Assembly: GCA_963771175.1 (NCBI GenBank) | Contig: CAVYSY010000038.1 | Location: 273,103 to 337,102 of the forward strand | DNA: 64,000 bases | Reading direction: 5' to 3' | Source of the DNA: an uncultured delta proteobacterium | GTDB taxonomy: Bacteria > Myxococcota > Myxococcia > Myxococcales > Myxococcaceae | In this document: positions 1,919 to 16,902 of the stretch, piece after piece | How the letters are laid out: each line of letters begins with the position of its first letter | How positions within the stretch are numbered: position 1 is the stretch's first letter | Position numbers and translations under genes: made by a program | The notes under the pieces: model-generated | Told to the model about the DNA's origin: nothing | What the model saw: the letters and a program-made list of their open reading frames with translations, nothing else | The model's database searches: none

Positions 1919-4358
1919 TCACTCGCTCCTGATGGCGATGATGGGGTCCACGCGCGAGGCCCGGCGCGCGGGCATCCACGTGGCCAGCAGGGCGATGATG
2001 CCCAGCAGCAGCGCGAGCGAGCCGAAGGTGAGCGGATCCCTCGTGCTCACCCCATAGAGGAGGCTCTCCATGAAGCGCGACAGGCCGAAAGCCCCGGCGA
2101 GCCCGGCGCCCACGCCCAGGGCGGCCAGCAGCGCCCCCTGGCGCATCACCAGCTTCACGACGTCCGAGGGCTGCGCGCCCAGGGCCATCCGGATGCCGAG
2201 CTCTCGCGTGCGCTGGGAGACGGTGTAGGAGATGACGCCGTAGAGGCCCGCGGTGGCGAGCACCAGGGCGATGACGGCGAAGGCTCCCAGCAGCACCAGG
2301 TTCATCCGGCGCGCCACCATGGAGCGCGAGATGATCTCCTCCATGGTGAACACCTCGGCGATGGCCAGCTCCGAGTCCACGGACTTCACCGCCGCCCGCA
2401 GCGCGGAGGCGCCGGCCGTCGAATCCACCGTCGTCCTCACCACCAGGAACACGTCCTGGAGACCAAAGGGGTTGGCCCCGGCCTGGTTGTAGGGCAGGTC
2501 GATCTCCGGGACAGGCTTCCGGTCCAACCCACCCTGGCGCACGTCGCCCACCACGCCGATGACGGTGGCGGACTGCCTCATGAACGTCAGCCGCCGGCCC
2601 ACCGCTTCGCCCTGGCCGAAGTGCCGCTGGGCCAACGCCTGGTTGATGATGACCACGAGCTCCCCCTGGCCATCCTGCTCGGTGAATTCGCGCCCGGCCA
2701 GCAAGGGAATCCCCATGGCCTTGATGAGGCCCGGACTCAGGGCGCGGAACTCCGCCATTGGATCCTTCCCCGGTTCGGGCTCCGGCTCCCCCTCGACGGT
2801 GTAGCTGGTGGTGAGGGACCCTGGATGGATGGGGAGCAGCGAGGTGAGCCCCACGGACTGCACGCCGGGCTGAGAGCGCAACTGCTCCAGGACGGGCTGG
2901 AAGACGCGCTGGGGGGCCTCCGCGAGCGGGTACTTGTAGGTGGGCACCGACATGCGGGCGGTGAGCACACCGCGCGCGTCGAAGCCCGGCGCCTCGTTGA
3001 GCAGGGTGATGAAGCCACGCATCATCAGCCCGGCGCCCACCAGGAGGATGAGCGACAGGGCCAGCTCACCCACCACGAGCCCACCACGGAAGCGGTGTTG
3101 CGCCCGCGACGACGAGGCCTTCGTCCCGGACCCGCCGAGGCTGGCGCGCAGGTCGGTGCGAGTGACCTGCAGCGCCGGGAAGAGCCCGAAGAGCACCGAG
3201 CTGCCCGCGGCCACCAGCAGCAGCAGGCCGAAGACGTTGCCCCGCAGCGAGATGTCGCCGAGCAGCGGCAACGAGCGCGACACCAGGCCCTCCAGCGCAC
3301 TCACGCCCCAGGCCGCCAGGAGCGCTCCGAGCACCGCGCCCGCCAGCGACAGCACCAGGCTCTCCACGAGCATCTGCCGGATGAGGCGGGACCGGCTCGC
3401 GCCAAGCGCAGCCGGACGGCCATCTCCTTGCGGCGCGCGGCCCCCTGGGCGAGCAGGAGGTTGGCCACGTTGGCACAGGCGATGAGCAGCACGAGCAGCA
3501 CCGTGCCCTGGAGGATGAGCAGCACGGGCCGCACCTTCCCCATCACCGTCTCCGTGAGCGGCACGGCCGTGGCGCTGCGCCCGGCCAGGTCGTTCGGGTA
3601 GGCCTCCTGCAGACGGGTGACGAGCTGGCGCAGCTCGGTGTTGGTGGCCTCGAGGCTCACCCCGGACTTGAGCCGGCCGATGACGTTCAGGAAGCGCGAG
3701 CCCCGGGCCTCGGCGTTCGGGCCCGTGACGGAGAGGGGGATGAACAGGTCCATCTGCGTCTGCGTGCCCGCGGGGAACTGGACCGCGGTCGGCAGCACGC
3801 CGATGACCGTGTAGGGCAGCCCATCCAGCGTCAGGCTCTGGCCGAGCAGCGCGGGGTTCTCGCCGAAGCGCCGCTTCCAAAGCCCCTCGCTCACCACCAC
3901 CACGGGCGCGCTGCCGGGGGCATCCTCTCCCGGGGAGAAGCCACGGCCGAGCCGCGGCTCCACGCCGAGCACCTGGAAGAGATTGGCGGAGACCTCGGCG
4001 ACGCGCAGCCGCTCGGTGCCCTCGCTCCGCCCAGGTTACGGCTCTTGAGGGTGTAGGTGGCGAGGCCTTCGAGGCTCTGGAGCTGCTGCGCCCAGTCCCG
4101 GACGTTGGGCCAGGAGGCGGACTCGCGCAGGTTGGGATCTCTCTGGGGCACCGTCTCGAAGAGGCGCACGAGCCGCTCCGGCTCCGCGTACGGCAGCGGG
4201 CGCAGGAGCGTGGCGTCCACCACGCTGAAGATGGCCGCGTTGGCGCCGATTCCCAGGGCCAGGCACAGCACCGCCACCGTGGTGAAGCCCGGGCTCTTGC
4301 CCAGCCTGCGCAACGCGAAGCGGACATCCCGGCTCAGGTCATCCATCCAGCTCGTCAT
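1919..4358 (-). CDS. duplicated ABC permease (MacB/FtsX-like, ADOP type); frameshifts near 4020 and 3410
   Basis: [16 protein letters not shown]...[52 protein letters not shown]-terminus. Confidence 0.9.
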
Positions 4359-4448
4359 TCCACGCACCCCTTGGGCAGGACCCACCATGGCCTCGGTCCT
4401 CTCCGGACATGCCGGGCAGCTCGATGGAGCAAGGCCTTCAGCAGCCTA

Positions 4449-4793
4449 CTACGTGTTGCGCTCCAGCTCCGCGCAGGTCTCGGCCGTGCCGGCGCACGGC
4501 ACGGTGTCGAGCTGCCTGAGGCGCTCCAGCTCCGCGCAGGCCTCGGGCGTGCCGGCGCACGGCTCGGTGGTGCCGAGCTGCTTGTTGCGCTCCAGCTCCG
4601 CGCAGGCCTCGGGCGTGCCAGCGCACGGCTCGGTGGTGCCGAGCTGCTTGTTGCGCTCCAGCTCCGCGCAGGCCTCGGGCGTGCCGGCGCACGGCTCGGT
4701 GGTGGACTCCGACGTCACGAGCTCCTCCGGACCACAGCCCGTGGCGAGGACCGTCAATCCCAGGGTGGCAAGCAGCAGGCACGGCTTGAGCAT
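4449..4793 (-). CDS. small lipoprotein (114 aa) with four tandem Cys-x6-Cys repeats
   Basis: GGAGAG RBS; MLKPCLLLATLGLTVLATG-C lipobox; repeats of EPCAGTPEACAELERNKQLGT; TAG TAG stop. Confidence 0.75.
   Translation of the reverse strand: MLKPCLLLATLGLTVLATGCGPEELVTSESTTEPCAGTPEACAELERNKQLGTTEPCAGTPEACAELERNKQLGTTEPCAGTPEACAELERLRQLDTVPCAGTAETCAELERNT
4455..4704 (-). repeat. coding tandem repeat, 63-bp/21-aa unit, four copies (last one diverged)
   Basis: near-identical gcgctccagctccgcgcaggcctcgggcgtgccggcgcacggc units read directly from the sequence. Confidence 0.95.
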
Positions 4794-4876
4794 GTGCATC
4801 TCTCCGGTGAGGGTACGAAGGGTCTGAAGCACTATCATCCAGCAATTCAGGGAAAATTGGAATGAAAGGGGGAGTC

Positions 4877-7004
<2,128 letters not shown>

Positions 7005-7025
7005 GGTGAGCACGTGCGGCGAAGT

Positions 7026-7556
7026 CTACTCGCGGAGGAGATGGACGAGGTACTTCCGGGGGGGCGTCCACACCTGCACCTTGAGCGGCAACGGCGCGGA
7101 AGGGGCCGGGAGGGCGGGGTCGGGGGCGAGCAACACCTGGAGGCAGGACGCCTGCTCCGGGGGCGAGGAGGCCTGCAAGAAGGCCCGGGACTCGCGGCTG
7201 CACGGGCCGGTGGAGAGCTTGGAGATCACCCCCCGCGAGCGCTCCGCCGAGCCCGCGAAGCGGAACTCGAGCGTATCGCCGGGACGCAGGTGCTCGGCGG
7301 CCGTCGGCTCCAGGGAGAGCTCGAGCCCCTGACCCCGCGCGGGGGCGTCTTCCACCAGGGCGACGAACATCGGCTGGAAGTCGAGCCGTGACAGCGCGAA
7401 GCCAAGGAGCGCCATGAGGAGCAGGGGGACCAAGGTCACCAGCCGCAGCGACAGCGGACGCAGCAGGCTGATCTCCCCGAGGTGACGCACTCGGCGGTGG
7501 TTGAGCGCCTCGTACCTGAAGAGAGGCCGGCCTTGAACGGGGGGCTCGGGTTTCAT
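7026..7556 (-). CDS. short HlyD/CvaA-like secretion accessory protein
   Basis: LFRYEAL...HLGEI N-terminal motif, one TM helix, LRPGDTLEFRF...RGVISKLS beta-domain; sits directly upstream of the PCAT. Confidence 0.65.
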   Translation of the reverse strand: MKPEPPVQGRPLFRYEALNHRRVRHLGEISLLRPLSLRLVTLVPLLLMALLGFALSRLDFQPMFVALVEDAPARGQGLELSLEPTAAEHLRPGDTLEFRFAGSAERSRGVISKLSTGPCSRESRAFLQASSPPEQASCLQVLLAPDPALPAPSAPLPLKVQVWTPPRKYLVHLLRE

Positions 7557-7598
7557 GATCGTCACCAATCCGTGGGCAAGCGCCGGCCCCCCGACGGC

Positions 7599-8753
7599 TC
7601 AGGCACCCTGTGCCGTCAGCCGGGCACGCAGAGGACGGGAGAGGGCAAGGCCCAGCTCGCTCAGCCCCACCTCGCTCTCGATGGGGACGCGCAGTTGTTC
7701 CATGTACGCGACAATCGTGCTCTGGCGGCTGGAGATCTCCTTCTGAAGCCCCATGGCGCGGAACTTCTCGAAGGCGATGAGCGCGTTGCCGAAGGCATGA
7801 TAGCCGATGAGGATCCGGTCGAGGGGGCGCTCGCACTTCTTGAGGGGCGAGTAATGCGGCCTGGCCTCGGGCGTCACGAACGAACCGACCCAGCTCGCCA
7901 TGTGGAAGTACTGGTGCGAGCACTCGTGAATCATCATCTCCGCCGTCTCCGTGGGCGTGGCCGGCACGCACAGGTCGATGCCGCCGAAGCGGCGCGGCGA
8001 GGAGCCGCTGGCGATCATGTTCCAGTCCGGACGGCGGATGGGAGTGATCTCCTTGAGCAGACAGAGGACCCAGGCGCGATACTCCGGCATGGCCCGGCCC
8101 ATCAGCTCCAGGGCCTCCTCGAACTGGGCGACCGCTCCCTGATTCACGACCGCCGCGGGCTGGCTGAGCTCATCCAGAAAGGTCGTGTGCCACTCGGCAC
8201 CCACCACGCGGATGGTGGGCTGACCGTCGACCCGGACGAACGAGGACTCCGTGCCGGCTTCAGCCCACACGGGGCTGCCGTTGCGCTGGGCGATGACCGA
8301 GAACGACCGGGGGGCGGTAGCGCCCTCGGCCTGGATCGTCATCCGGTCGGCTCCACCCCGGATGGAGAGACGCGCGGCGGGGACGAGCTGGCCGGCCACG
8401 AAGAGAGGCGCGTTCGTCTCGACGTCGAGCTCGAGCTCGGAGGTCACTCCCGTCACGTGCGCGCTGAGGGAAATCTGGGCCCGGAGCCAGTTCCAGTCGC
8501 CCTCCGTGAAGGCCTGCTTCGACAGGCCGTTGAAGATGATCGCCACCTCCGGCGTCCAGTAGGCCGTGTTCGCCCCCCGCTGGGCGAGCCGCTGGGCGAT
8601 GTCGGCGAGCCGGGCGTCCTGGCTGTAGCCGTGCTGCTCGGCGAGGCGAATCGCCCGGCGACAGAAGACCCGGAACTGGTTGGTGGCAAGCTCGGCCGTC
8701 AGGGCGGCGTAATCGCCCTCGAAAGGATTGGACAGTCGGTTGAAGATTTCCAT
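7599..8753 (-). CDS. aKG-HExxH-type peptide-modifying enzyme (HEXXH motif protein)
   Basis: MIHECSHQ; YSPLKKCERP...GYHAF; SGSSPRRFGGI; directly downstream of the rSAM. Confidence 0.85.
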   Translation of the reverse strand: MEIFNRLSNPFEGDYAALTAELATNQFRVFCRRAIRLAEQHGYSQDARLADIAQRLAQRGANTAYWTPEVAIIFNGLSKQAFTEGDWNWLRAQISLSAHVTGVTSELELDVETNAPLFVAGQLVPAARLSIRGGADRMTIQAEGATAPRSFSVIAQRNGSPVWAEAGTESSFVRVDGQPTIRVVGAEWHTTFLDELSQPAAVVNQGAVAQFEEALELMGRAMPEYRAWVLCLLKEITPIRRPDWNMIASGSSPRRFGGIDLCVPATPTETAEMMIHECSHQYFHMASWVGSFVTPEARPHYSPLKKCERPLDRILIGYHAFGNALIAFEKFRAMGLQKEISSRQSTIVAYMEQLRVPIESEVGLSELGLALSRPLRARLTAQGA

Positions 8754-8757
8754 GGGC

Positions 8758-10068
8758 TCACTCGATGACGGGCAGTTCCATTGAATTGGCTTCGGGAATC
8801 TGAATCTCGGCGGGAGCCGCGCCCAGGGTCACGGGCCGCAGGAAGTCCCGGGCCCAGAACTCGGGCTTGCGCGAGAGCACCTGCGACAGGCGCTCGACGC
8901 CGTTCTCCCGCCTGGCCACGATGGCGGCGATCGCGGTGTGGATGGTGTCCAGCGTCTCGCAGAAGACCGAGGGTTGGTCGAAGCCGGACCCCTTCTGATA
9001 GCGATTGAAGAGCTCTCCGGAGCGGCAGGTCCGGAACCAGTCGCAGCTCGCACACTTCTCGGGGGCCTTGTCGACGGCCCGCACGAGCTGCTGCCACATG
9101 GGGCTGCCGAGGAACTGCGCGAGGGTGGTGTTGCGGACGTTGGTGTCCGCGTTGAAGAGCGCCTTGTCGAGCGCCATGATGTTGTCATCCATCCCGAGCT
9201 TGCCATCGCCGGAGATGGTGATGATGTGGTGGCGGGTGGAGCGCCTGAAGTCCATCCGCTGGGCGCCGGCGTCCGAGATCATCGCCGACATGATGTCGGA
9301 GAGGAGCTGGATGGTGACCAGCCGGCCGATCTTCTTGGGCGTCGTCTGCCAGTACTTGATGATCTCGGTGAAGTAGGCGACCCACTTGCTCTGGGGCTTC
9401 CAGACATCGCTGTCGTAGCCTTCTCGCGGCAGCAGGATGTTGAAGTTGTCGATGCCGAGATCCTCGACGAAGTGCCGGACGACCTCTTCTCCGCTGTGAT
9501 TGGGATTGGCCACGCAGAGGATGCCCGTGGCGCGGTTGCGCCCGGCACGCACCCCCTCCTGGAGCAAGCGCAGGCCCCTCACCGTGGCCTCGTAGCTCCC
9601 CTTCCCCTTATGATCGGGGCGGGCCGCGTCGTGGATGTGGGGCGGGCCATCCAGGCTCACTCCCGCGGCCACCTGGTGCTCGGCGAAGAGCGAGACCCAT
9701 TCCTGGTCGACTCGCGTCCCGTTCGTCTGGAGCCCGAGGTGGACGTTCGTCACATCCGAGAGCTCTTCGCGGAGGATGCGGCAGATGGCATCGAAGCGCT
9801 TCTTCGGCATCAGCAGGGGCTCGCCACCGTGCAGGCCGATGTAGAGGTGCTGGATGTCCATCTCCTGCACACCGCGGCGTAGGAACGCGGCGACGTCTCG
9901 GATCGTGGCCTCGGAGATCAGGGCGGGACTGCTCTTGTAGAGATCGTTTTCCTGAAAAAAGTAATAACAGTACGGGCACGCCAGGTTGCACCGCTCCGCT
10001 ATCTTGAGGACCACGTCCAGACAATTGGCCCACTCTCGAGGTTCTCTGCGCATCCTCGCCTCACTCAT
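8758..10068 (-). CDS. radical SAM/SPASM peptide maturase, XyeB-like three-residue cyclophane-forming enzyme
   Basis: LKIAERCNLACPYCYYF; HGGEPLLM; LQTNG; SLDGP; GILCVAN...RHFVEDLG; C-terminal CASCDWFRTC...SVFC. Confidence 0.9.
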   Translation of the reverse strand: MSEARMRREPREWANCLDVVLKIAERCNLACPYCYYFFQENDLYKSSPALISEATIRDVAAFLRRGVQEMDIQHLYIGLHGGEPLLMPKKRFDAICRILREELSDVTNVHLGLQTNGTRVDQEWVSLFAEHQVAAGVSLDGPPHIHDAARPDHKGKGSYEATVRGLRLLQEGVRAGRNRATGILCVANPNHSGEEVVRHFVEDLGIDNFNILLPREGYDSDVWKPQSKWVAYFTEIIKYWQTTPKKIGRLVTIQLLSDIMSAMISDAGAQRMDFRRSTRHHIITISGDGKLGMDDNIMALDKALFNADTNVRNTTLAQFLGSPMWQQLVRAVDKAPEKCASCDWFRTCRSGELFNRYQKGSGFDQPSVFCETLDTIHTAIAAIVARRENGVERLSQVLSRKPEFWARDFLRPVTLGAAPAEIQIPEANSMELPVIE

Positions 10069-10083
10069 CCTGGGTTGCGGTGC

Positions 10084-10130
10084 AAAAAGCGGCCAGCCGC
10101 CGCGGGGTTGAGTCCACTGCGTCTGGCCGC
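10084..10130 (-). terminator. hairpin plus U5 tract between precursor and rSAM (leaky terminator or stabilising stem)
   Basis: minus strand gcggccag...ctggccgc stem followed by ttttt. Confidence 0.65.
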
Positions 10131-10146
10131 CTACAGCGAACGACTA

Positions 10147-10362
10147 CTACTCCATCTGCTCCAGCTCCTTACCGAGCGAGCCGTGCGCGGAGCCGTGGCC
10201 GGAGAGGTGGCCCGAGGCGTGCGCGGCGGCGGCGCTCACCGCATCCAGGTGCACGTCCATGAGCTCCACCAGCTCCTGGTCCGCGACGACCAGGTTCTTC
10301 TCCGAGGCGCCATCGAGCTTCGCCTTCAGACGGTCCGCCAGGGTCGAGAGGTTGTTATCCAT
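10147..10362 (-). CDS. RiPP precursor peptide, 71 aa, with (H-x-S-G/A) repeat core
   Basis: AAGGAGG RBS; leader ...ELMDVHLDAVSAA; core AAHASGHLSGHGSAHGSLGKELEQME; first gene of the cluster. Confidence 0.88.
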   Translation of the reverse strand: MDNNLSTLADRLKAKLDGASEKNLVVADQELVELMDVHLDAVSAAAAHASGHLSGHGSAHGSLGKELEQME

Positions 10363-10897: not shown

Positions 10898-11254
10898 TCA
10901 GTCTCGGGGGGGGGCGTCCGAGCCGGGCATCGGAATCTCCTCGCCCCGAAGGCGTCCTCGGAACACCGCGGCCCGCATCAGGAACAGGGTGGTGACCGGC
11001 GCGGTGAGCGCGATGAACACCGCGATGAGCAGCGCATGAAGGTAGAGCTGGCCGCGTTCGTAGGAGACCTGCACCGCCGTCGCGAGCGCGAAGCCCCAGG
11101 TGCCCAGCGTCGCGCCCAGGGTGGGCGCGTGGACGCGCTGGAAGAAGCTCCTCAGGCGCAGCACCCCGAACGAGCCGATCAGCGCCGCCAGCGCCCCCCC
11201 CACCACGAGCACCGCGGTCAGCGCATCCACCCACGGAGGAGTCCACCCGTTCAT
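10898..11254 (-). CDS. mnhG: Mrp/Pha monovalent cation/H+ antiporter subunit G
   Basis: GSFGVLRLRSFFQRVHAPT; LTAPV; last gene of the operon. Confidence 0.9.
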   Translation of the reverse strand: MNGWTPPWVDALTAVLVVGGALAALIGSFGVLRLRSFFQRVHAPTLGATLGTWGFALATAVQVSYERGQLYLHALLIAVFIALTAPVTTLFLMRAAVFRGRLRGEEIPMPGSDAPPRD

Positions 11255-11529
11255 TCGATGACCTCCCCGCGCAGGAGGAACTTGGCCATCGCCGTGGAGC
11301 CCACGAACCCGAAGAGGGCGATCAAGAGCGCCGCCTCGAAGTAGGAGCTGCTGCGATAGACGAGCCCCAGCGCGAGGATGACCAGCATCGCGTTCAGGTA
11401 CAGGCAGTCGAACGCCAACACGCGGTCCTCCGCCCTGGGCCCGACAATCATCCGTGCCAGCGCCAGCACCATCGCGAGGGCAAGACAGCCAAGGGCGAAT
11501 GCCAGCGACCAGGAGAGCAGAGGGCTCAT
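11251..11529 (-). CDS. mnhF: Mrp/Pha antiporter subunit F
   Basis: GPRAEDRVLAFDCLY; GFVGSTAMAKFLLRGEVIE. Confidence 0.9.
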   Translation of the reverse strand: MSPLLSWSLAFALGCLALAMVLALARMIVGPRAEDRVLAFDCLYLNAMLVILALGLVYRSSSYFEAALLIALFGFVGSTAMAKFLLRGEVIE

Positions 11530-12013
11530 TCGAAGATCTCCCTGAGCGGACGCTCGTAGTGATGCTTGATGAAGGTCACCAGGTTCGTCTCGCTCTGAAT
11601 GGCGAGCACGTGCAGCAGCAGGACGCGGTTGTCCGCCGACAACTGCGCCCAGGCGGTGCCCGGCGTGAACGTGACGATCATCGCCAGCACGGCCAATCCG
11701 TTCGGATCCTTCAGCTCGAGCGGAATGAGCACGAAGCCGGAGCGGATGTCGCGCGAGCGCTGGGTGAGAATCGCCCACGCCACCTCGGCGTTCGACCGCA
11801 GCATCTCGAGCACCACCCGGCAGAACAGGCGAGCCAGGAGGAGGGGCCTGCGCAACCGCACGGGGGTGGGCCGAGCCCGACGGTCACCGCGGGCCAGAAC
11901 AGCGCCAGGGCGGCGCCCAGCACCAGCGTCCCCGCGTCCAACGACTGCATGAGGAGAATCCAGAGCAGGAGCAGCGCCACCGAGAGCGCGGGAGAAGGAA
12001 GGAGCCGCCTCAT
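11526..12013 (-). CDS. mnhE: Mrp/Pha antiporter subunit E (frameshift near 11870)
   Basis: IVTFTPGT; LLLHVL; YERPLREIFE. Confidence 0.88.
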
Positions 12014-13653
12014 CGCCCCGCCTCCGGCGCCGTGGCGGGCGGCCGCACCTCTGCTCCGAGGACCGCGTCGATGTACCCGCGGCGGTCATAGAGGGACTGG
12101 GCCGTTGCGCGCGCGAGCTCCATCGCGGGTCCCGCCGCGAGCGTCAGCACTCCGCACGCGGTGAGGAGCACCACCAGGGACAAGCCCTCCGGCGCCCGGA
12201 CCCGAGGGGGCTCGCGCTGCATCTCGGACCAGAAGGTCCGGATTCCCGTCCGCGTGAGCGCGATGAGGGTGAGCAGGCCGCAGCCCAGGAGCACCGCCGG
12301 TGAACAGCCATGCACGGGCGGAGACTGGCCCGCTCCTCCCGGGCGACCCGAGCGCCGCCGACAACATGCCGAGCTTGCCGATGAAGGTGGACAGCGGAGG
12401 CAGGCCGGAGATGAGCAGTGCGCACGCGATGAAGGCCAGGCCCAACAGCGCGGTGGAGGCGGGGAACGGCAGGGCGACGAGCGGCTCCTCCTCGTCGTCG
12501 AGGTTGACCTCCTGCGTCTCGAGCGTCGCGCTCAAGAAGGGCGCCTCGTCCACCACGGTCGCACCCGCACGCCACCGCTCGACGAGGTCGACGAGCAGGA
12601 AGAAGGCGCTGGAGGCCAGCGTGGAGCTCACCAGGTAGAACACCGCGCGGCCGAGGACGGCTTCCTCGCCCAGGCCCAGCGCCGCCAGGAGCGTCCCGGC
12701 GGAGACCATCACCCCCGCCGCCGCCTGGACCGCGAGCCTCTGCGAGGCGATCATCCCCAGGGCCGCGAACACCGCGGAGACCACTCCGAACGCGAGCAGC
12801 CCGTCCGAGCCGAACCCCGCCAGCGGCCCCCCGGCGAACATCAGCGTCCAGAGCCGCACCAGGGCGTAGACGCCGACCTTCGTGAGCACCGCGAACATCG
12901 CCGCCACCGGCGGAGTCGCCGACGCATAGGCGGGGACGAGCCAGAAGTTGAGCGGCCAGGCCGCCGCCTTGGCCAGGAACGCCACCGCGAGGATGGCCGC
13001 TCCCGCGTCGATGAGGTGCCGGTTGGCCACATTCTCCTGGGACAGGCGCGCGGAGAGCTCCGCCATGTTGAGCGTCCCGGTGACGCCGTAGATCATCGAC
13101 ACGCCGATGAGGAAGAGCGACGAGGCGGCGAGGTTCACCGCCACGTAGTGCAGGCCCGCGCGGACCCGCGACTTTCCGGAGCCATGCAGCAACAGGCCGT
13201 ACGAGGCGGCGAGGAGAATCTCGAAGAAGACGAAGAGGTTGAAGACGTCCGCCGTCAGGAACGCGCCGGAGAGCCCCATGAGCTGCAGCTGGAAGATGGG
13301 GTGGAAGTGAACGCCCGCGCGGTGCCAGCGCGTGAAGGCGAAGGAGAGCGCGCAGGTGCCCAGGATCCAGGTCAGCACCAACATCCCCGCCGACAGCCGG
13401 TCCACCGCGAGGGCGATCCCGAACGGCGCGGGCCAGTTGCCGGGCAGGTAGGCCACGACGCCGTATTCGTTCACCCACGCCGAGCAGCACCACCGAGACG
13501 GCGAGTCCCAGGAGCGCGGAGATCATCCCCATCAGCAGCTTCGCCGGGCGGCGCCCCTCGCCCAGGAGGAGCATCACCGCCGCGGTCAGCATCGGCAGGA
13601 GGATGGGCGCCACCATCAGGTGGGGCATCAGGGCCTTGGATGAGCGCGCTCAT
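12010..13653 (-). CDS. mnhD: Mrp/Pha antiporter subunit D (several frameshifts)
   Basis: GNWPAPFGI; DVFNLFVFFEILLAASYGL; KAAAWPLNFWL. Confidence 0.9.
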
Positions 13654-13989
13654 GGCTCGGTGCCGTCCACGTGATCCGTCCCGGTCATCCCGCGCGAGGC
13701 CAGGATGATGACCAGGAGGAGCGCCGTCATCGCGAAGCTGATGACGATGGCCGTCAGCACGAGCGCCTGCGGCACCGGGTCCGTGTAGTGCGCGAGATCC
13801 GGCGGGACGCCGTCCACGAGGATGGGCTCCTTGTCGATGGCCAGGCCGCCAATGCTGAAGATGAAGAGGTTGACCGCGTAGGAGAGCAGCGACAGGCCGA
13901 CGACCAGCTGGAACGTGCGCGGGCCGCAGCAGCAGCCAGACGCCAGAGCCGGTCAGGATGCCGATAGCGATCGCGAGCACCACCTCCAT
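13650..13989 (-). CDS. mnhC: Mrp/Pha antiporter subunit C (frameshift near 13920)
   Basis: SYAVNLFIF; DPVPQALVLTAIVISFA. Confidence 0.88.
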
Positions 13990-13992
13990 CAA

Positions 13993-16902
13993 TCACCTCC
14001 CGAGGCCCGGTGCGCGCGGATGCGACTGGTGCGCGAGCGCCACGAGGATGAGCAGCGTGGCGCCCAGCACCAGGCAGAACACGCCCAGGTCGAAGAACAC
14101 CGCGCTCCCAAGGTGGAGCTCGCCCAGCACCGGCACGTTCAGATGGAAGGTGTGCGAGGTGAGCAGCGGGTACCCGACCACGAACGACTCCCGACGGCCG
14201 TGCCGAGCACGAACAGGAGGCCGACCGCCATCATCGCGCGCGGCGCGAGGTCGCAGCCGCTCCTCGACCCACTCGGTCCCGGACACGAGGTACTGCAGCA
14301 GGAAGCCCACCGACATCACCAGCCCCGCGACGAACCCACCGCCCGGCGCGTTGTGCCCACGCAGGAAGAAGAACACCGCCACCACTCCCGACACGGGCAG
14401 GAGCAGCCGGATCAGCACCGCGGGGACCTCAGGTACCCCACCGCGGTGTCTCTGCGCCTGGCGCGGGTTCACCAGGTCCGTCTGCAGGTCCGCCGGCAGC
14501 GCGCTGCTGCTGCGGCGGAAGCGCCATCACCTCGGTCGCCGGCCGGAAGCGGCGCAGGAGCGCGTAGACGGTGAGCGCGACGAGCACCAGCACCACGCCC
14601 TCGCCGAAGGTGTCGAACCCGCGGAAGTCCACCAGCATCACGTTCACCACGTTCCGCCCGCCTCCGCCGCTCAGCGCGTGCTCGAGGAAGAAGGAGGTCC
14701 GCTCGGGGAGCTCGCGCGTCATCACCGCGTAGGCCAGCACCGCCATCCCGCAACCGGCGCCCAGCGCGATGAGGAAGTCGCGGGCTCGCCGGCCCCGGGC
14801 GATCCGCAGGGTGTGCGCGTCGTAGACGCCGCGCGCCGGCTCTCGCGGCGGCAGCCACCGGAGCCCGAGCAGGATGAGCAGCGTCGTCACCACCTCGACG
14901 GTGAGCTGGGTGAGCGCGAGGTCCGGCGCGGAGAACCAGATGAACGTGACGCAGCACACCGCGCCCGCGGTCCCCGACAGCATCAGCGCGGCGAGCCGGT
15001 GGAACTTCGCCTGCCAGGCCGCCCCCATCGCCGCGACGCCGCCCACCGCCCAGAGCGCGACGAACGTCGGCGAGAGCGGCACCAGCGGACGGTCCCCAGT
15101 GCCGATGCCGCCCCACAGCGTCCAGGACGCCCACGAGCAGCGTGACCACCACCATCGCCAGCAGCTGCTGCTGGAGCCCCGCGGTGAGCAGCCAGCGGCG
15201 CGAGCCACCGCTCGCCGCGGTGAGCCGCCGCCAGCAGGGCCGTGAAGAGCCTCGCGCCGTCGAACCACTCCAGGAAGCGCGCGCCCAGCGTCACCCGCCG
15301 CGCCTCCAGCCTCCGCAGCGCAGGTAGCAGCAGCGCGCCGCCGACCGAGCGCCAGCGCGCTCATCAGCAGCGGGAGGGTGAAGCCATGCCAGAGCTTGAG
15401 GCTGTACGGCGGGAGCGCGCCGCCCACGACCTGGCCGGGAGGCGGCCTCGAGGATAGGTCCCGATCGACGCCGCGGGCGCAATGCCCACGACGAGGCAGA
15501 TGAGGACCAGCACCTCGACGGGGACGCGCATCCAGAGCGGGCCTCTTCTGGGACGCGCGGGGTGTCGCGAGCGCGCTCCGGGCCGAAGAAGACCTTCGCG
15601 GAGAACCGGAGCGAGTAGGCGACGCTGCCCACGCCGGCCAGCGTCGCCGCGATGGGCAGGATCCAGCTCGCACCGCCGGGACTGGCGTCGATGAAGGCGG
15701 TCTCCGCGAAGAACATCTCCTTCGAGAGGAAGCCGTTGAGCAGCGGGACGCCGGCCATCGCCGCGGTGGCGACGACCGCGAGCGTCCCGGTGATGGGCAT
15801 CAGCCGGAAGAGCCCCGACAGCCGCCGGATGTCCCTCGTCCCCGTCTCGTGGTCGATGATGCCGACCGCCATGAAGAGCGACGCCTTGAAGGTGGCGTGG
15901 TTCGATCAGGTGGAACACCGCCGCCACCGCCGCGAGCGGGCTGTTGAGCCCGAGCAGCAGGACGATCAGCCCCAGATGCGAGATGGTCGAGTAGGCCAGC
16001 AGCCCCTTCAGGTCGCGCTGGAAGAGCGCCACCCACGCGCCGAACAGCAGCGTCACCAGGCCGGCCGACCCGACCGTGCCAGAACCACAGCTCGGTCCCG
16101 GAGAGCACCGGCCACAGCCGCGCCAGCAGGAAGACGCCCAGCTTCACCATCGTCGCCGAGTGCAGGTACGCCGACACCGGCGTCGGCGCCGCCATCGCGT
16201 TCGGCAGCCAGAACTGGAACGGGAACTGGGCGCTCTTGGTGAACGCGCCGAGGAGGATCAGGCCCAGCGCCACCGGGTAGAGCGGGTGGCTCCGGAGCCG
16301 AGGTCGCGCTCCGCGAGGCAGCGCCTCCAGCTCGTAGCTGCCCACCAGCTGTCCGAGGATCAGCAGCCCGGCGAGCAGGCAGAGCCCGCCCATGCCGGTG
16401 ACGGTGAGCGCCATCCGCGCGCCGCGCTGCGCGTCCTTGCGCTGGTTCCAGTAGCCGATCAGCAGGAAGGAGAAGAGGGAGGTCAGCTCCCAGAAGAACG
16501 CCAGCGGCATCAGGTTCCCGGAGAGGACCACGCCCAGCATCGCGCCCATGAACGCGAGGAGGAAGGCGAAGAAGCGCGGCACCGGGTCCGACGGCGAGAG
16601 GTAGTACCGCGCGTACAGCATCACCAGCACGCCGATCCCCAGGACGAGCACGCAGAAGATCCACGAGAGGCCGTCCAGCCGCAGCACCAGCTCGAGCCCA
16701 AGGCGAGGGCACCCACGGCAGCCGCTCGGTCCTCAGTCCGTCCGCACGCGCGCGCGGGAAGTGCAAGCGCCACGCCCACCAGGCCCACCAGCGCGGTGAG
16801 GCCCGCCAGTCCCGCCGCGCGGTTTCGGGCGCTCGTGGGCAGCAGTGCCGCGATGGCCCCGGAGACCCAGGGAATGAGGAGAAGAGCAAGGAGCGGCATC
16901 AC
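13993..16902 (-). CDS. mnhA: Mrp/Pha antiporter fused subunit A/B (multiple frameshifts)
   Basis: [58 protein letters not shown]. Confidence 0.92.

Follow-up and report, generated by a model that had tools for sequence, protein, structure and literature searches.

A minus-strand operon in the window, as we call the 64,000-nucleotide stretch of DNA analysed here, is headed by a gene for a 71-residue peptide, followed in order by genes for a radical SAM/SPASM enzyme (rSAM), an aKG-HExxH protein, a short HlyD-like membrane protein and a Peptidase-C39 ABC exporter (PCAT). The C-terminal half of the peptide holds four His-x-Ser (HxS) triplets at a period of four residues. We think, with moderate confidence, that this is the precursor of a triceptide-type RiPP from an Archangium-like myxobacterium, which would receive up to four HxS rings, be oxidised, be cut by the C39 domain and be exported. 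Triceptides are defined by a bond from an aromatic residue to a C-beta within aromatic1-X2-X3 motifs (PMC11499958).

The precursor family and its gene neighbourhood

The precursor gene (10147..10362, minus strand; MDNNLSTLADRLKAKLDGASEKNLVVADQELVELMDVHLDAVSAAAAHASGHLSGHGSAHGSLGKELEQME) is an ATG-started ORF with homologues and with a ribosome-binding site, GGAGG, 7 nt before the start codon, and it lies 78 nt upstream of the rSAM gene. The predicted leader comprises residues 1-45 (10228-10362) and the predicted core residues 46-71 (10150-10227), with the stop codon at 10147-10149 (all on the minus strand). The C-terminal half reads ...VSAAAA-HAS-G-HLS-G-HGS-A-HGS-LGKELEQME. Its four triplets, the predicted ring-forming motifs by translation and homologue conservation, span 10177..10221 of the minus strand, which is exactly residues 48-62 (HASGHLSGHGSAHGS). 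The His residues stand at 48, 52, 56 and 60, the Ser residues at 50, 54, 58 and 62, and the single spacers are G51, G55 and A59. A first-pass annotation of this DNA had described the same four His with Ser at +2 and Gly/Ala spacers, in a peptide free of Trp, Phe and Tyr. Re-reading of the ORF and a composition count over the whole peptide agree with it on both points.

The DNA of the HxS stretch is itself repetitive, with 4.1 copies of a degenerate 12-nt unit in tandem (72% matches). When the whole peptide was shuffled 200,000 times, at least three HxS at period 4 never appeared, and at least four HxS at any spacing appeared in 32 shuffles. An equal number of shuffles of the 21-residue core gave a period-4 run of three in 30 cases and a run of four in none. 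Together with the ribosome-binding site and the homologues, the shuffles rule out chance or a spurious ORF.

A word-indexed search returned 14 homologues (all 14 candidates scored), with sources including Archangium sp. and Corallococcus sp. When 1.84 billion cluster representatives were searched with a profile, 27 proteins matched at E ≤0.001, 26 of them beyond the earlier set. The 326-aa repeat protein P0160 was left out because it matches through low-complexity stretches only, and the precursor counts given here refer to a family set of 39 peptides. H52, S54, H56, S58, H60 and S62 are invariant in 14 of 14 homologues. Four HxS at period 4 are present in 11 of these and three in two more; the last has six HxS at spacings of 4, 6, 3, 4 and 6. 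The number of triplets per peptide across the 39 members is one in 1, two in 10, three in 9, four in 15, five in 3 and six in 1, and 80 of the 90 successive pairs are four residues apart. Once the leaders are removed, Ser stands at +2 of 128 of 135 core His residues and at -2 of 89 of 135. Many residues occur at position 2 (G 50, L 22, A 14, V 14, S 12, and others), and the triplet is kept where the spacer differs in length (e.g. HLSGPGHLS, HNSGGHSS and HLSHSS). The conserved motif, the variable position 2 and the altered spacers therefore identify the unit as H-x-S, read from N to C like aromatic1-X2-X3. Counted over the last 30 residues of the 39 members, His occurs 140 times, Tyr 8 times, Phe twice and Trp never. 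The first-pass annotation had made its reading depend on the HxS periodicity being kept in homologues, and their alignments show it strongly conserved. Among the more divergent cores, P0014 has six HxS with GPG spacers, and Cys-spacer cores (HGSCHGSC...) occur among P0141, P0143, P0147 and P0139, where further cross-links are conceivable.

Four other loci have the order precursor, rSAM, HExxH protein, 160-175-aa protein, PCAT. These lie in an Archangium sp. metagenome-assembled genome (MAG; L001), in Citreicoccus inhibens M34 (L002) and in the myxobacterial genomes G197 (L092, the same region as L010; core HTS-W-HGD-H-HSS) and G203 (L093, the same region as L011; core HSS-Y-HQN-N-HSS). A Verrucomicrobiota MAG (L015) has precursor, rSAM and HExxH genes in the same order and the core HLD-I-HNS-A-HQS; a large putative exporter gene lies upstream on the opposite strand, and there is no short HlyD-like ORF among those listed. 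In addition, a short metagenome contig (L012) encodes an rSAM 60% identical to that of the window, with a core reading ...VSGG-A-HGS-V-HVS-V.... The cores of L092, L093, L015 and L012 thus also carry Hxx triplets at period 4. Identity to the window's rSAM is 41-82% across L001, L002, L092 and L093, and 41-45% for L092, L093 and L015. The HExxH proteins of the module loci all exceed the curated cut-off. Some loci have extra tailoring genes: a PKHD-type Fe(II) dioxygenase between precursor and rSAM (L092, 4563-5156), three aKG-HExxH paralogues in all (L093, 1718-8004) and a NodU-like carbamoyltransferase (L015, 5938-7104).

The system is sparse. At E ≤1e-60 it was found in five of 363 genomes of the order, the window's own included, and in one of 17 other genomes of the same genus; 401 genomes sampled across the phylum gave the same five genomes as the order search. 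The source genome has a single copy. The homologue lists of the rSAM and the HExxH protein have 15 apparently common source entries, an indirect hint that the two travel together. A precursor-profile scan of genome contigs returned five loci (L001-L005). The true relatives among them are L001 and L002. L003 and L004 were rejected, having only leader-like words in common and no HxS core, and L005 matches over 33 leader residues. A metagenome scan with an rSAM profile kept 80 loci, mostly with distant rSAMs. Six were inspected (L012-L017), and two (L012 and L015) have precursors with Hxx at period 4; three of the other four have less than 170 nt of upstream sequence.

Enzymes and export genes of the operon

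The rSAM gene (8758..10068, minus strand) encodes a 436-aa protein with the motif CNLACPYC, predicted from NCBIfam, Pfam and PDB matches to be a three-residue cyclophane synthase. It matches Pfam Radical_SAM. Its NCBIfam scores are 292.7 bits for XyeB (TIGR04496; cut-off 450), 217.2 for YhhB (NF041707; cut-off 445) and 199 for FxsB (cut-off 370), all below the cut-off, with anSME behind these at 134.1 bits. Among solved structures, the ChlB rSAM domain is nearest in sequence (PDB 9gm3, E 1.3e-29), and the anSME structure 4k37 matches at E 2.2e-22. C22/C26/C29 (CxxxCxxC) and C334/C337/C343/C365 (C-terminal, with CxxCx5C) are invariant in 25 clade members. All 25 members tested match XyeB, whose best E-value (7.2e-93) is the lowest of any family. 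Two features mark a triceptide pathway, and both are found here: a 3-CyFE homologue with CxxxCxxC and SPASM-type cysteines, and an adjacent precursor with aromatic1-X2-X3 core motifs. At these scores the enzyme is neither a XyeB nor a YhhB/ChlB equivalog and, judged by sequence, it belongs to an unnamed 3-CyFE clade. Since it falls under the cut-off of every named 3-CyFE model, its exact reaction lies outside any equivalog.

Four bases downstream of the rSAM gene starts that of a discrete aKG-HExxH protein (7599..8753, minus strand; 384 aa, IHECSH), a predicted peptide hydroxylase on the evidence of its match to TIGR04267.2 and of its fold. It scores 65.7 bits with TIGR04267.2, the aKG-HExxH beta-hydroxylase model, over a cut-off of 40, and its H276, E277 and H280 are invariant in 31 homologues. 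An AlphaFold model (pLDDT 94, pTM 0.92) gave SjiH-Ni (22ob; E 1.5e-12, TM 0.63/0.60) as the best Foldseek match and ChlB-HExxH (8s5f; E 2.1e-9, TM 0.57/0.63) as the second; the protein is no more than 12-16% identical in sequence to the solved HExxH structures. The protein thus combines the curated score and the conserved HExxH of this hydroxylase family with the modelled fold of ChlB-HExxH and SjiH. A zinc leader peptidase is unlikely in view of the curated match and the two aKG-HExxH fold matches, as zinc peptidases appear only at E >0.03.

A terminator-like hairpin followed by U5 (10084..10132, minus strand), supported by a consensus scan and by folding, lies between the precursor and rSAM genes. 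The scan matches at 10103-10089, and the region 10060-10150 folds at -37.6 kcal/mol (z = -1.97), with seven of 200 shuffles folding as well. The hairpin (10084-10132) is GC-rich and runs into UUUUU. It may act as a leaky or partial terminator that keeps the precursor transcript above the enzyme transcripts and so sets the precursor-to-enzyme ratio.

The leader end follows the pattern [LM][D..]x[VIL]x[GAS][GAS] in all 39 family members, its last two residues being AA in 19, GA in 12, GG in 6 and other in 2. L31, L34, L39 and V42 of the window's peptide are conserved and occupy positions -15, -12, -7 and -4 of the leader end, and hydrophobic residues fill these positions (-4, -7, -12 and -15) in 39 of 39 members. 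Such a double-glycine leader pattern is the classical cut site of C39 domains. The PCAT (4877..7013, minus strand) matches Pfam Peptidase_C39 (112.8 bits), ABC_membrane and ABC_tran, so that a C39 exporter and a GG/GA/AA leader end with hydrophobic -4/-7/-12, the marks of a PCAT-processed peptide, occur together here. Cleavage after (G/A)44-A45 would free a 26-residue product, and the core begins directly with His in 13 of the 39 peptides.

The short membrane protein (7026..7568, minus strand; 180 aa as listed) has a HlyD-like N-terminus according to its Atlas clusters, and neither Pfam nor NCBIfam gave a match. The Atlas clusters nearest to it carry HlyD-family names (score 0.96), no more than a lead. 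In L001, L002, L092 and L093, a protein of 160-175 aa holds the same position, and we take the window's protein as a predicted exporter accessory. Two further genes lie downstream of the PCAT. The first, on the evidence of its translation, is a small lipoprotein-like ORF (4449..4799, minus strand) with a repeated TTEPCAGTPEACAELERNKQLG unit (66-nt repeat, 3.8 copies, two Cys per unit) and a signal sequence ending LATGC. A homologue follows the exporter in L001 and is absent in L002, and whether the ORF is part of the system is uncertain. The second is an ADOP/MacB-like duplicated permease (1919..4388, minus strand), which matches TIGR03434 with 555 bits on residues 306-802. Its gene likewise follows the PCAT in L001, L002 and L092, and it may serve export or self-protection.

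A single surplus base near 5115 puts the PCAT in two frames. In a tblastn comparison with the intact 711-aa protein of L001, residues 3-637 fall in one frame and 626-711 in another, and alignment of the DNA with L001 and L002 places this +1 base beside a (CG)n run. The break (5100-5137, minus strand) parts the ABC signature motif from the Walker B region. The ADOP permease is spread over three frames (tblastn, with the L002 protein as comparison). Upstream of the operon, Mrp-type antiporter genes (11251-16900, minus strand) are also broken across frames: positions 1-146 and 219-273 of Proton_antipo_M fall in separate ORFs, and a 55-aa ORF covers just the last half of Oxidored_q2. Taken together, the broken exporter, permease and Mrp genes suggest that the assembly is rich in indels. 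As the Mrp genes and the ADOP permease are broken too, we read the exporter frameshift, like the others, as probably an assembly error and not gene decay. The source genome is 82% complete in 58 contigs. The genes for the precursor, the rSAM, the HExxH protein and the small protein are unbroken and run collinear with those of L001.

Proposed product and competing readings

In the pathway that we propose, the 71-aa peptide would be bound through its conserved leader. The XyeB-like rSAM/SPASM enzyme would take a hydrogen from the C-beta of Ser, position 3 of each H-x-S, and the Ser radical would attack C2 of the position-1 His. This would yield as many as four His-C2-to-Ser-C-beta rings, parted by single Gly/Ala spacers, at -2 Da each and -8 Da in total. 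The discrete aKG-HExxH enzyme would then oxidise the ringed peptide, most likely by beta-hydroxylation of His. Finally, the C39 domain of the ABC exporter would cut after the double-Gly-type (G/A)44-A45, and AA-[HAS]-G-[HLS]-G-[HGS]-A-[HGS]-LGKELEQME would be exported with the help of the short HlyD-like protein. At a guess, the product is a secreted antagonistic or metal-binding peptide.

There are published precedents for this kind of ring. His-C2-to-C-beta rings are formed in HAA (by HaaB), HNR (YhhB/ChlB) and HTK (HtkB), and some His-triceptide precursor families have two or three or more Hxx motifs (PMC11499958). For a His-to-Ser ring, excerpts of PMC12912966 describe minviopeptin (2026) from Mucilaginibacter inviolabilis, in which MicB joins C2 of His5 to C-beta of Ser7 in HAS, with Gly next. 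HMBC/NMR proved this ring, the Ser C-beta at 67.5 ppm being a substituted methine (same excerpts). With these precedents, four His-C2-to-Ser-C-beta rings followed by oxygenation are therefore the most likely outcome. The first-pass annotation had proposed up to four His-to-Ser links (-8 Da), and the proposal stands as the most likely one, given the conserved HxS, the adjoining cyclophane-synthase homologue and the HAS ring precedent; sequence alone is not proof of the links. Its claim of novelty, namely that Xye-type cores are Trp/Phe-based, is out of date, as rings at HAA, HNR and HTK (excerpts of PMC11499958) and at HAS (excerpts of PMC12912966) are in print.

A comparison for the site of oxidation is ChlB, whose HExxH domain is reported to beta-hydroxylate Asp and His, and to do so only after ring formation (excerpts of PMC12636437). 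Gly is the commonest residue at position 2 and has no beta-carbon, so hydroxylation at that position cannot be general. By elimination, C-beta of His is our guess for the hydroxylation site, since apart from Ser it is the one residue conserved in every core. Oxidative backbone cleavage, which leaves an amide, is also within the reach of HEXXH enzymes (excerpts of PMC12636437), and almost all peptides of the Archangium-type subfamily have Gly64, two residues past the last Ser. C-terminal trimming is therefore a second possibility.

The most serious rival to ring formation is oxidation of the Ser C-beta to an aldehyde. Here the rSAM would modify the Ser of each HxS without a C-C ring, either to formylglycine or by a C-N or C-O link to the imidazole, and the product would be a poly-aldehyde or differently bridged. 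We judge this unlikely, for all that the mass change of formylglycine is the same as that of a ring (-2 Da per Ser) and that the first-pass annotation, which also lacked the aKG-HExxH neighbour, did not have this option for the loss of 2 Da at Ser. SjiB, itself a cyclophane synthase, turns the third-position Ser of YQSSI into formylglycine (PMC13598754, in an excerpt citing Ma et al. 2021), although the same excerpt describes the aldehyde as promiscuity on a minimal substrate. Likewise, anSME is a detectable relative of the rSAM (134.1 bits; PDB 4k37 at E 2.2e-22), yet the cyclophane families outscore it (292.7, 217.2 and 199 bits). rSAM cyclophane synthases as a group also form C-N and C-O bonds (excerpts of PMC11499958); on the other hand, the one characterised natural HAS motif gives a C-C ring with the hydroxyl retained (excerpts of PMC12912966). 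Moreover, if Ser alone were modified, the His two residues before it (128 of 135) would be unexplained.

A further reading, to which we also give a low probability, makes metal binding decisive: ringed or not, the peptide would be a secreted His-rich metallophore or metal buffer, with the four imidazoles as the binding site. A metallophore was also the alternative offered by the first-pass annotation. Among residues that are aromatic or could ligate a metal, His alone is conserved in the cores (140, compared with 8 Tyr, 2 Phe and 0 Trp). An imidazole alkylated at C2 still has its two nitrogens, and copper-binding ribosomal peptides with modified His exist (excerpts of PMC10206099). However, the conserved module contains no TonB receptor, binding protein or metal regulator, its conserved neighbours being exporters, and the strict Ser at +2 is superfluous for metal binding. 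As this reading concerns function and is compatible with rings, it is only partly a rival to the triceptide pathway. The two could even meet in imidazole ladders, that is, runs of two to six His-Ser cyclophanes, each perhaps carrying a beta-hydroxyl, in which the imidazole nitrogens keep fixed positions and which act as metallophores or metal-dependent agents for Cu, Ni or Zn. We regard such a function as doubtful, and excerpts of the triceptide literature examined report no metallophore or metal-dependent role for any triceptide.

In the HXS anti-phage system, an effector with HxS repeats that is matured by rSAM chemistry blocks the entry of phage DNA. It is very improbable that the operon is a small relative of this system: HxsA does have five HxS repeats matured by rSAM enzymes (excerpts of PMC13128918) and the window's rSAM weakly matches the HxsB model (71.4 bits), but this score is far under the cut-off of 370, HXS requires two rSAM enzymes (HxsB and HxsC), HxsD and an effector that has a peptidoglycan-binding domain and whose mass-spectrometry coverage reaches residue 214 (same excerpts), and here there are one rSAM, no HxsD, a domain-free 71-aa peptide and a PCAT exporter. 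We rejected membership on these gene-set grounds, on PADLOC, where only generic viperin radical-SAM models match the rSAM and none match the other three proteins, and on the mass change, which for HXS is reported as a gain of +8 Da on SHRSS instead of a mass loss (excerpts of PMC13128918).

Comparison with known systems

Tandem His-Xaa-Ser repeats in an rSAM-matured substrate are a trait that the window's precursor has in common with HXS (HxsABCD), the gene set, substrate size, domains, localisation route and mass change all being different (excerpts of PMC13128918). HaaB, YhhB and HtkB come closer in chemistry, forming the three-residue His-C2-to-C-beta rings that are predicted here. Yet their position 3 is Ala, Arg or Lys, in contrast to the Ser of the window's triplets, and they come from Pseudomonadota and Cyanobacteria with other leaders; YhhB, for one, scores 217.2 against a cut-off of 445.

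The operon also resembles ChlB and SjiB/SjiH, where a cyclophane-forming rSAM is paired with an aKG-HExxH oxygenase. The two activities are fused in ChlB, whereas they are encoded by separate genes in the window. In both known systems the substrate residues are other ones, and identity of the window's protein to the solved HExxH structures is 12-16%.

The Fxs system consists of a precursor ending in FxSxx-COOH (FxsA), an rSAM/SPASM enzyme (FxsB) and an HExxH protein (FxsC), by their NCBIfam names. It thus resembles the window's operon in having a discrete rSAM/SPASM enzyme, a discrete HExxH protein and an aromatic-x-Ser motif. The window's precursor, unlike FxsA, has no Phe, ends in ...KELEQME instead of FxSxx-COOH and carries four internal repeats where FxsA has one C-terminal motif. 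Its rSAM scores 199 bits with FxsB, short of the 370 expected of a member, and neither this score nor the precursor end places the operon in the Fxs system.

Minviopeptin has the same HAS followed by Gly, in the core YSKIHASGGFTKDL, and there too an aKG-dependent iron enzyme acts after ring formation (excerpts of PMC12912966). As the same excerpts have it, MicA contains a single HAS among YSK, HAS and FTK, whereas the window's core consists of four HxS triplets and no other motif; the fold of MicC is a double-stranded beta-helix, unlike that of the HExxH enzyme of the window; and the mic cluster includes an ADP-ribosyltransferase, of which there is none in the window's cluster. The likeness of MicB to the window's rSAM drawn here is one of chemistry.

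In sum, earlier publications already cover the class, the bond type (His-to-Ser included), multi-His precursors and the association with an aKG-HExxH enzyme, and the chemistry as such leaves existing knowledge unaltered. Our literature search found no paper dealing with a triceptide of HxS repeats or with an rSAM cyclophane peptide from myxobacteria, and nothing on this enzyme clade, leader family or all-HxS tandem core. The survey by Sugiyama et al. (2022), which catalogued about 3900 putative triceptide pathways (as given in excerpts of PMC11499958), may list the clade. What is uncharacterised is an enzyme clade under every curated NCBIfam cut-off and an all-His tandem core. Altogether, the operon points to a coherent triceptide branch with its own leader family, a His-x-Ser-only core and an obligatory discrete aKG-HExxH partner. 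By source names, the branch occurs in cultured myxobacteria (Citreicoccus inhibens M34, Corallococcus, Cystobacter and Haliangium). With four identical ring sites in one natural substrate, it lends itself to following the order and direction of multiple cyclophane formation. It also bears on how C-C coupling at Ser competes with formation of an aldehyde, and on how a stand-alone HExxH oxygenase acts where position 2 is often Gly.
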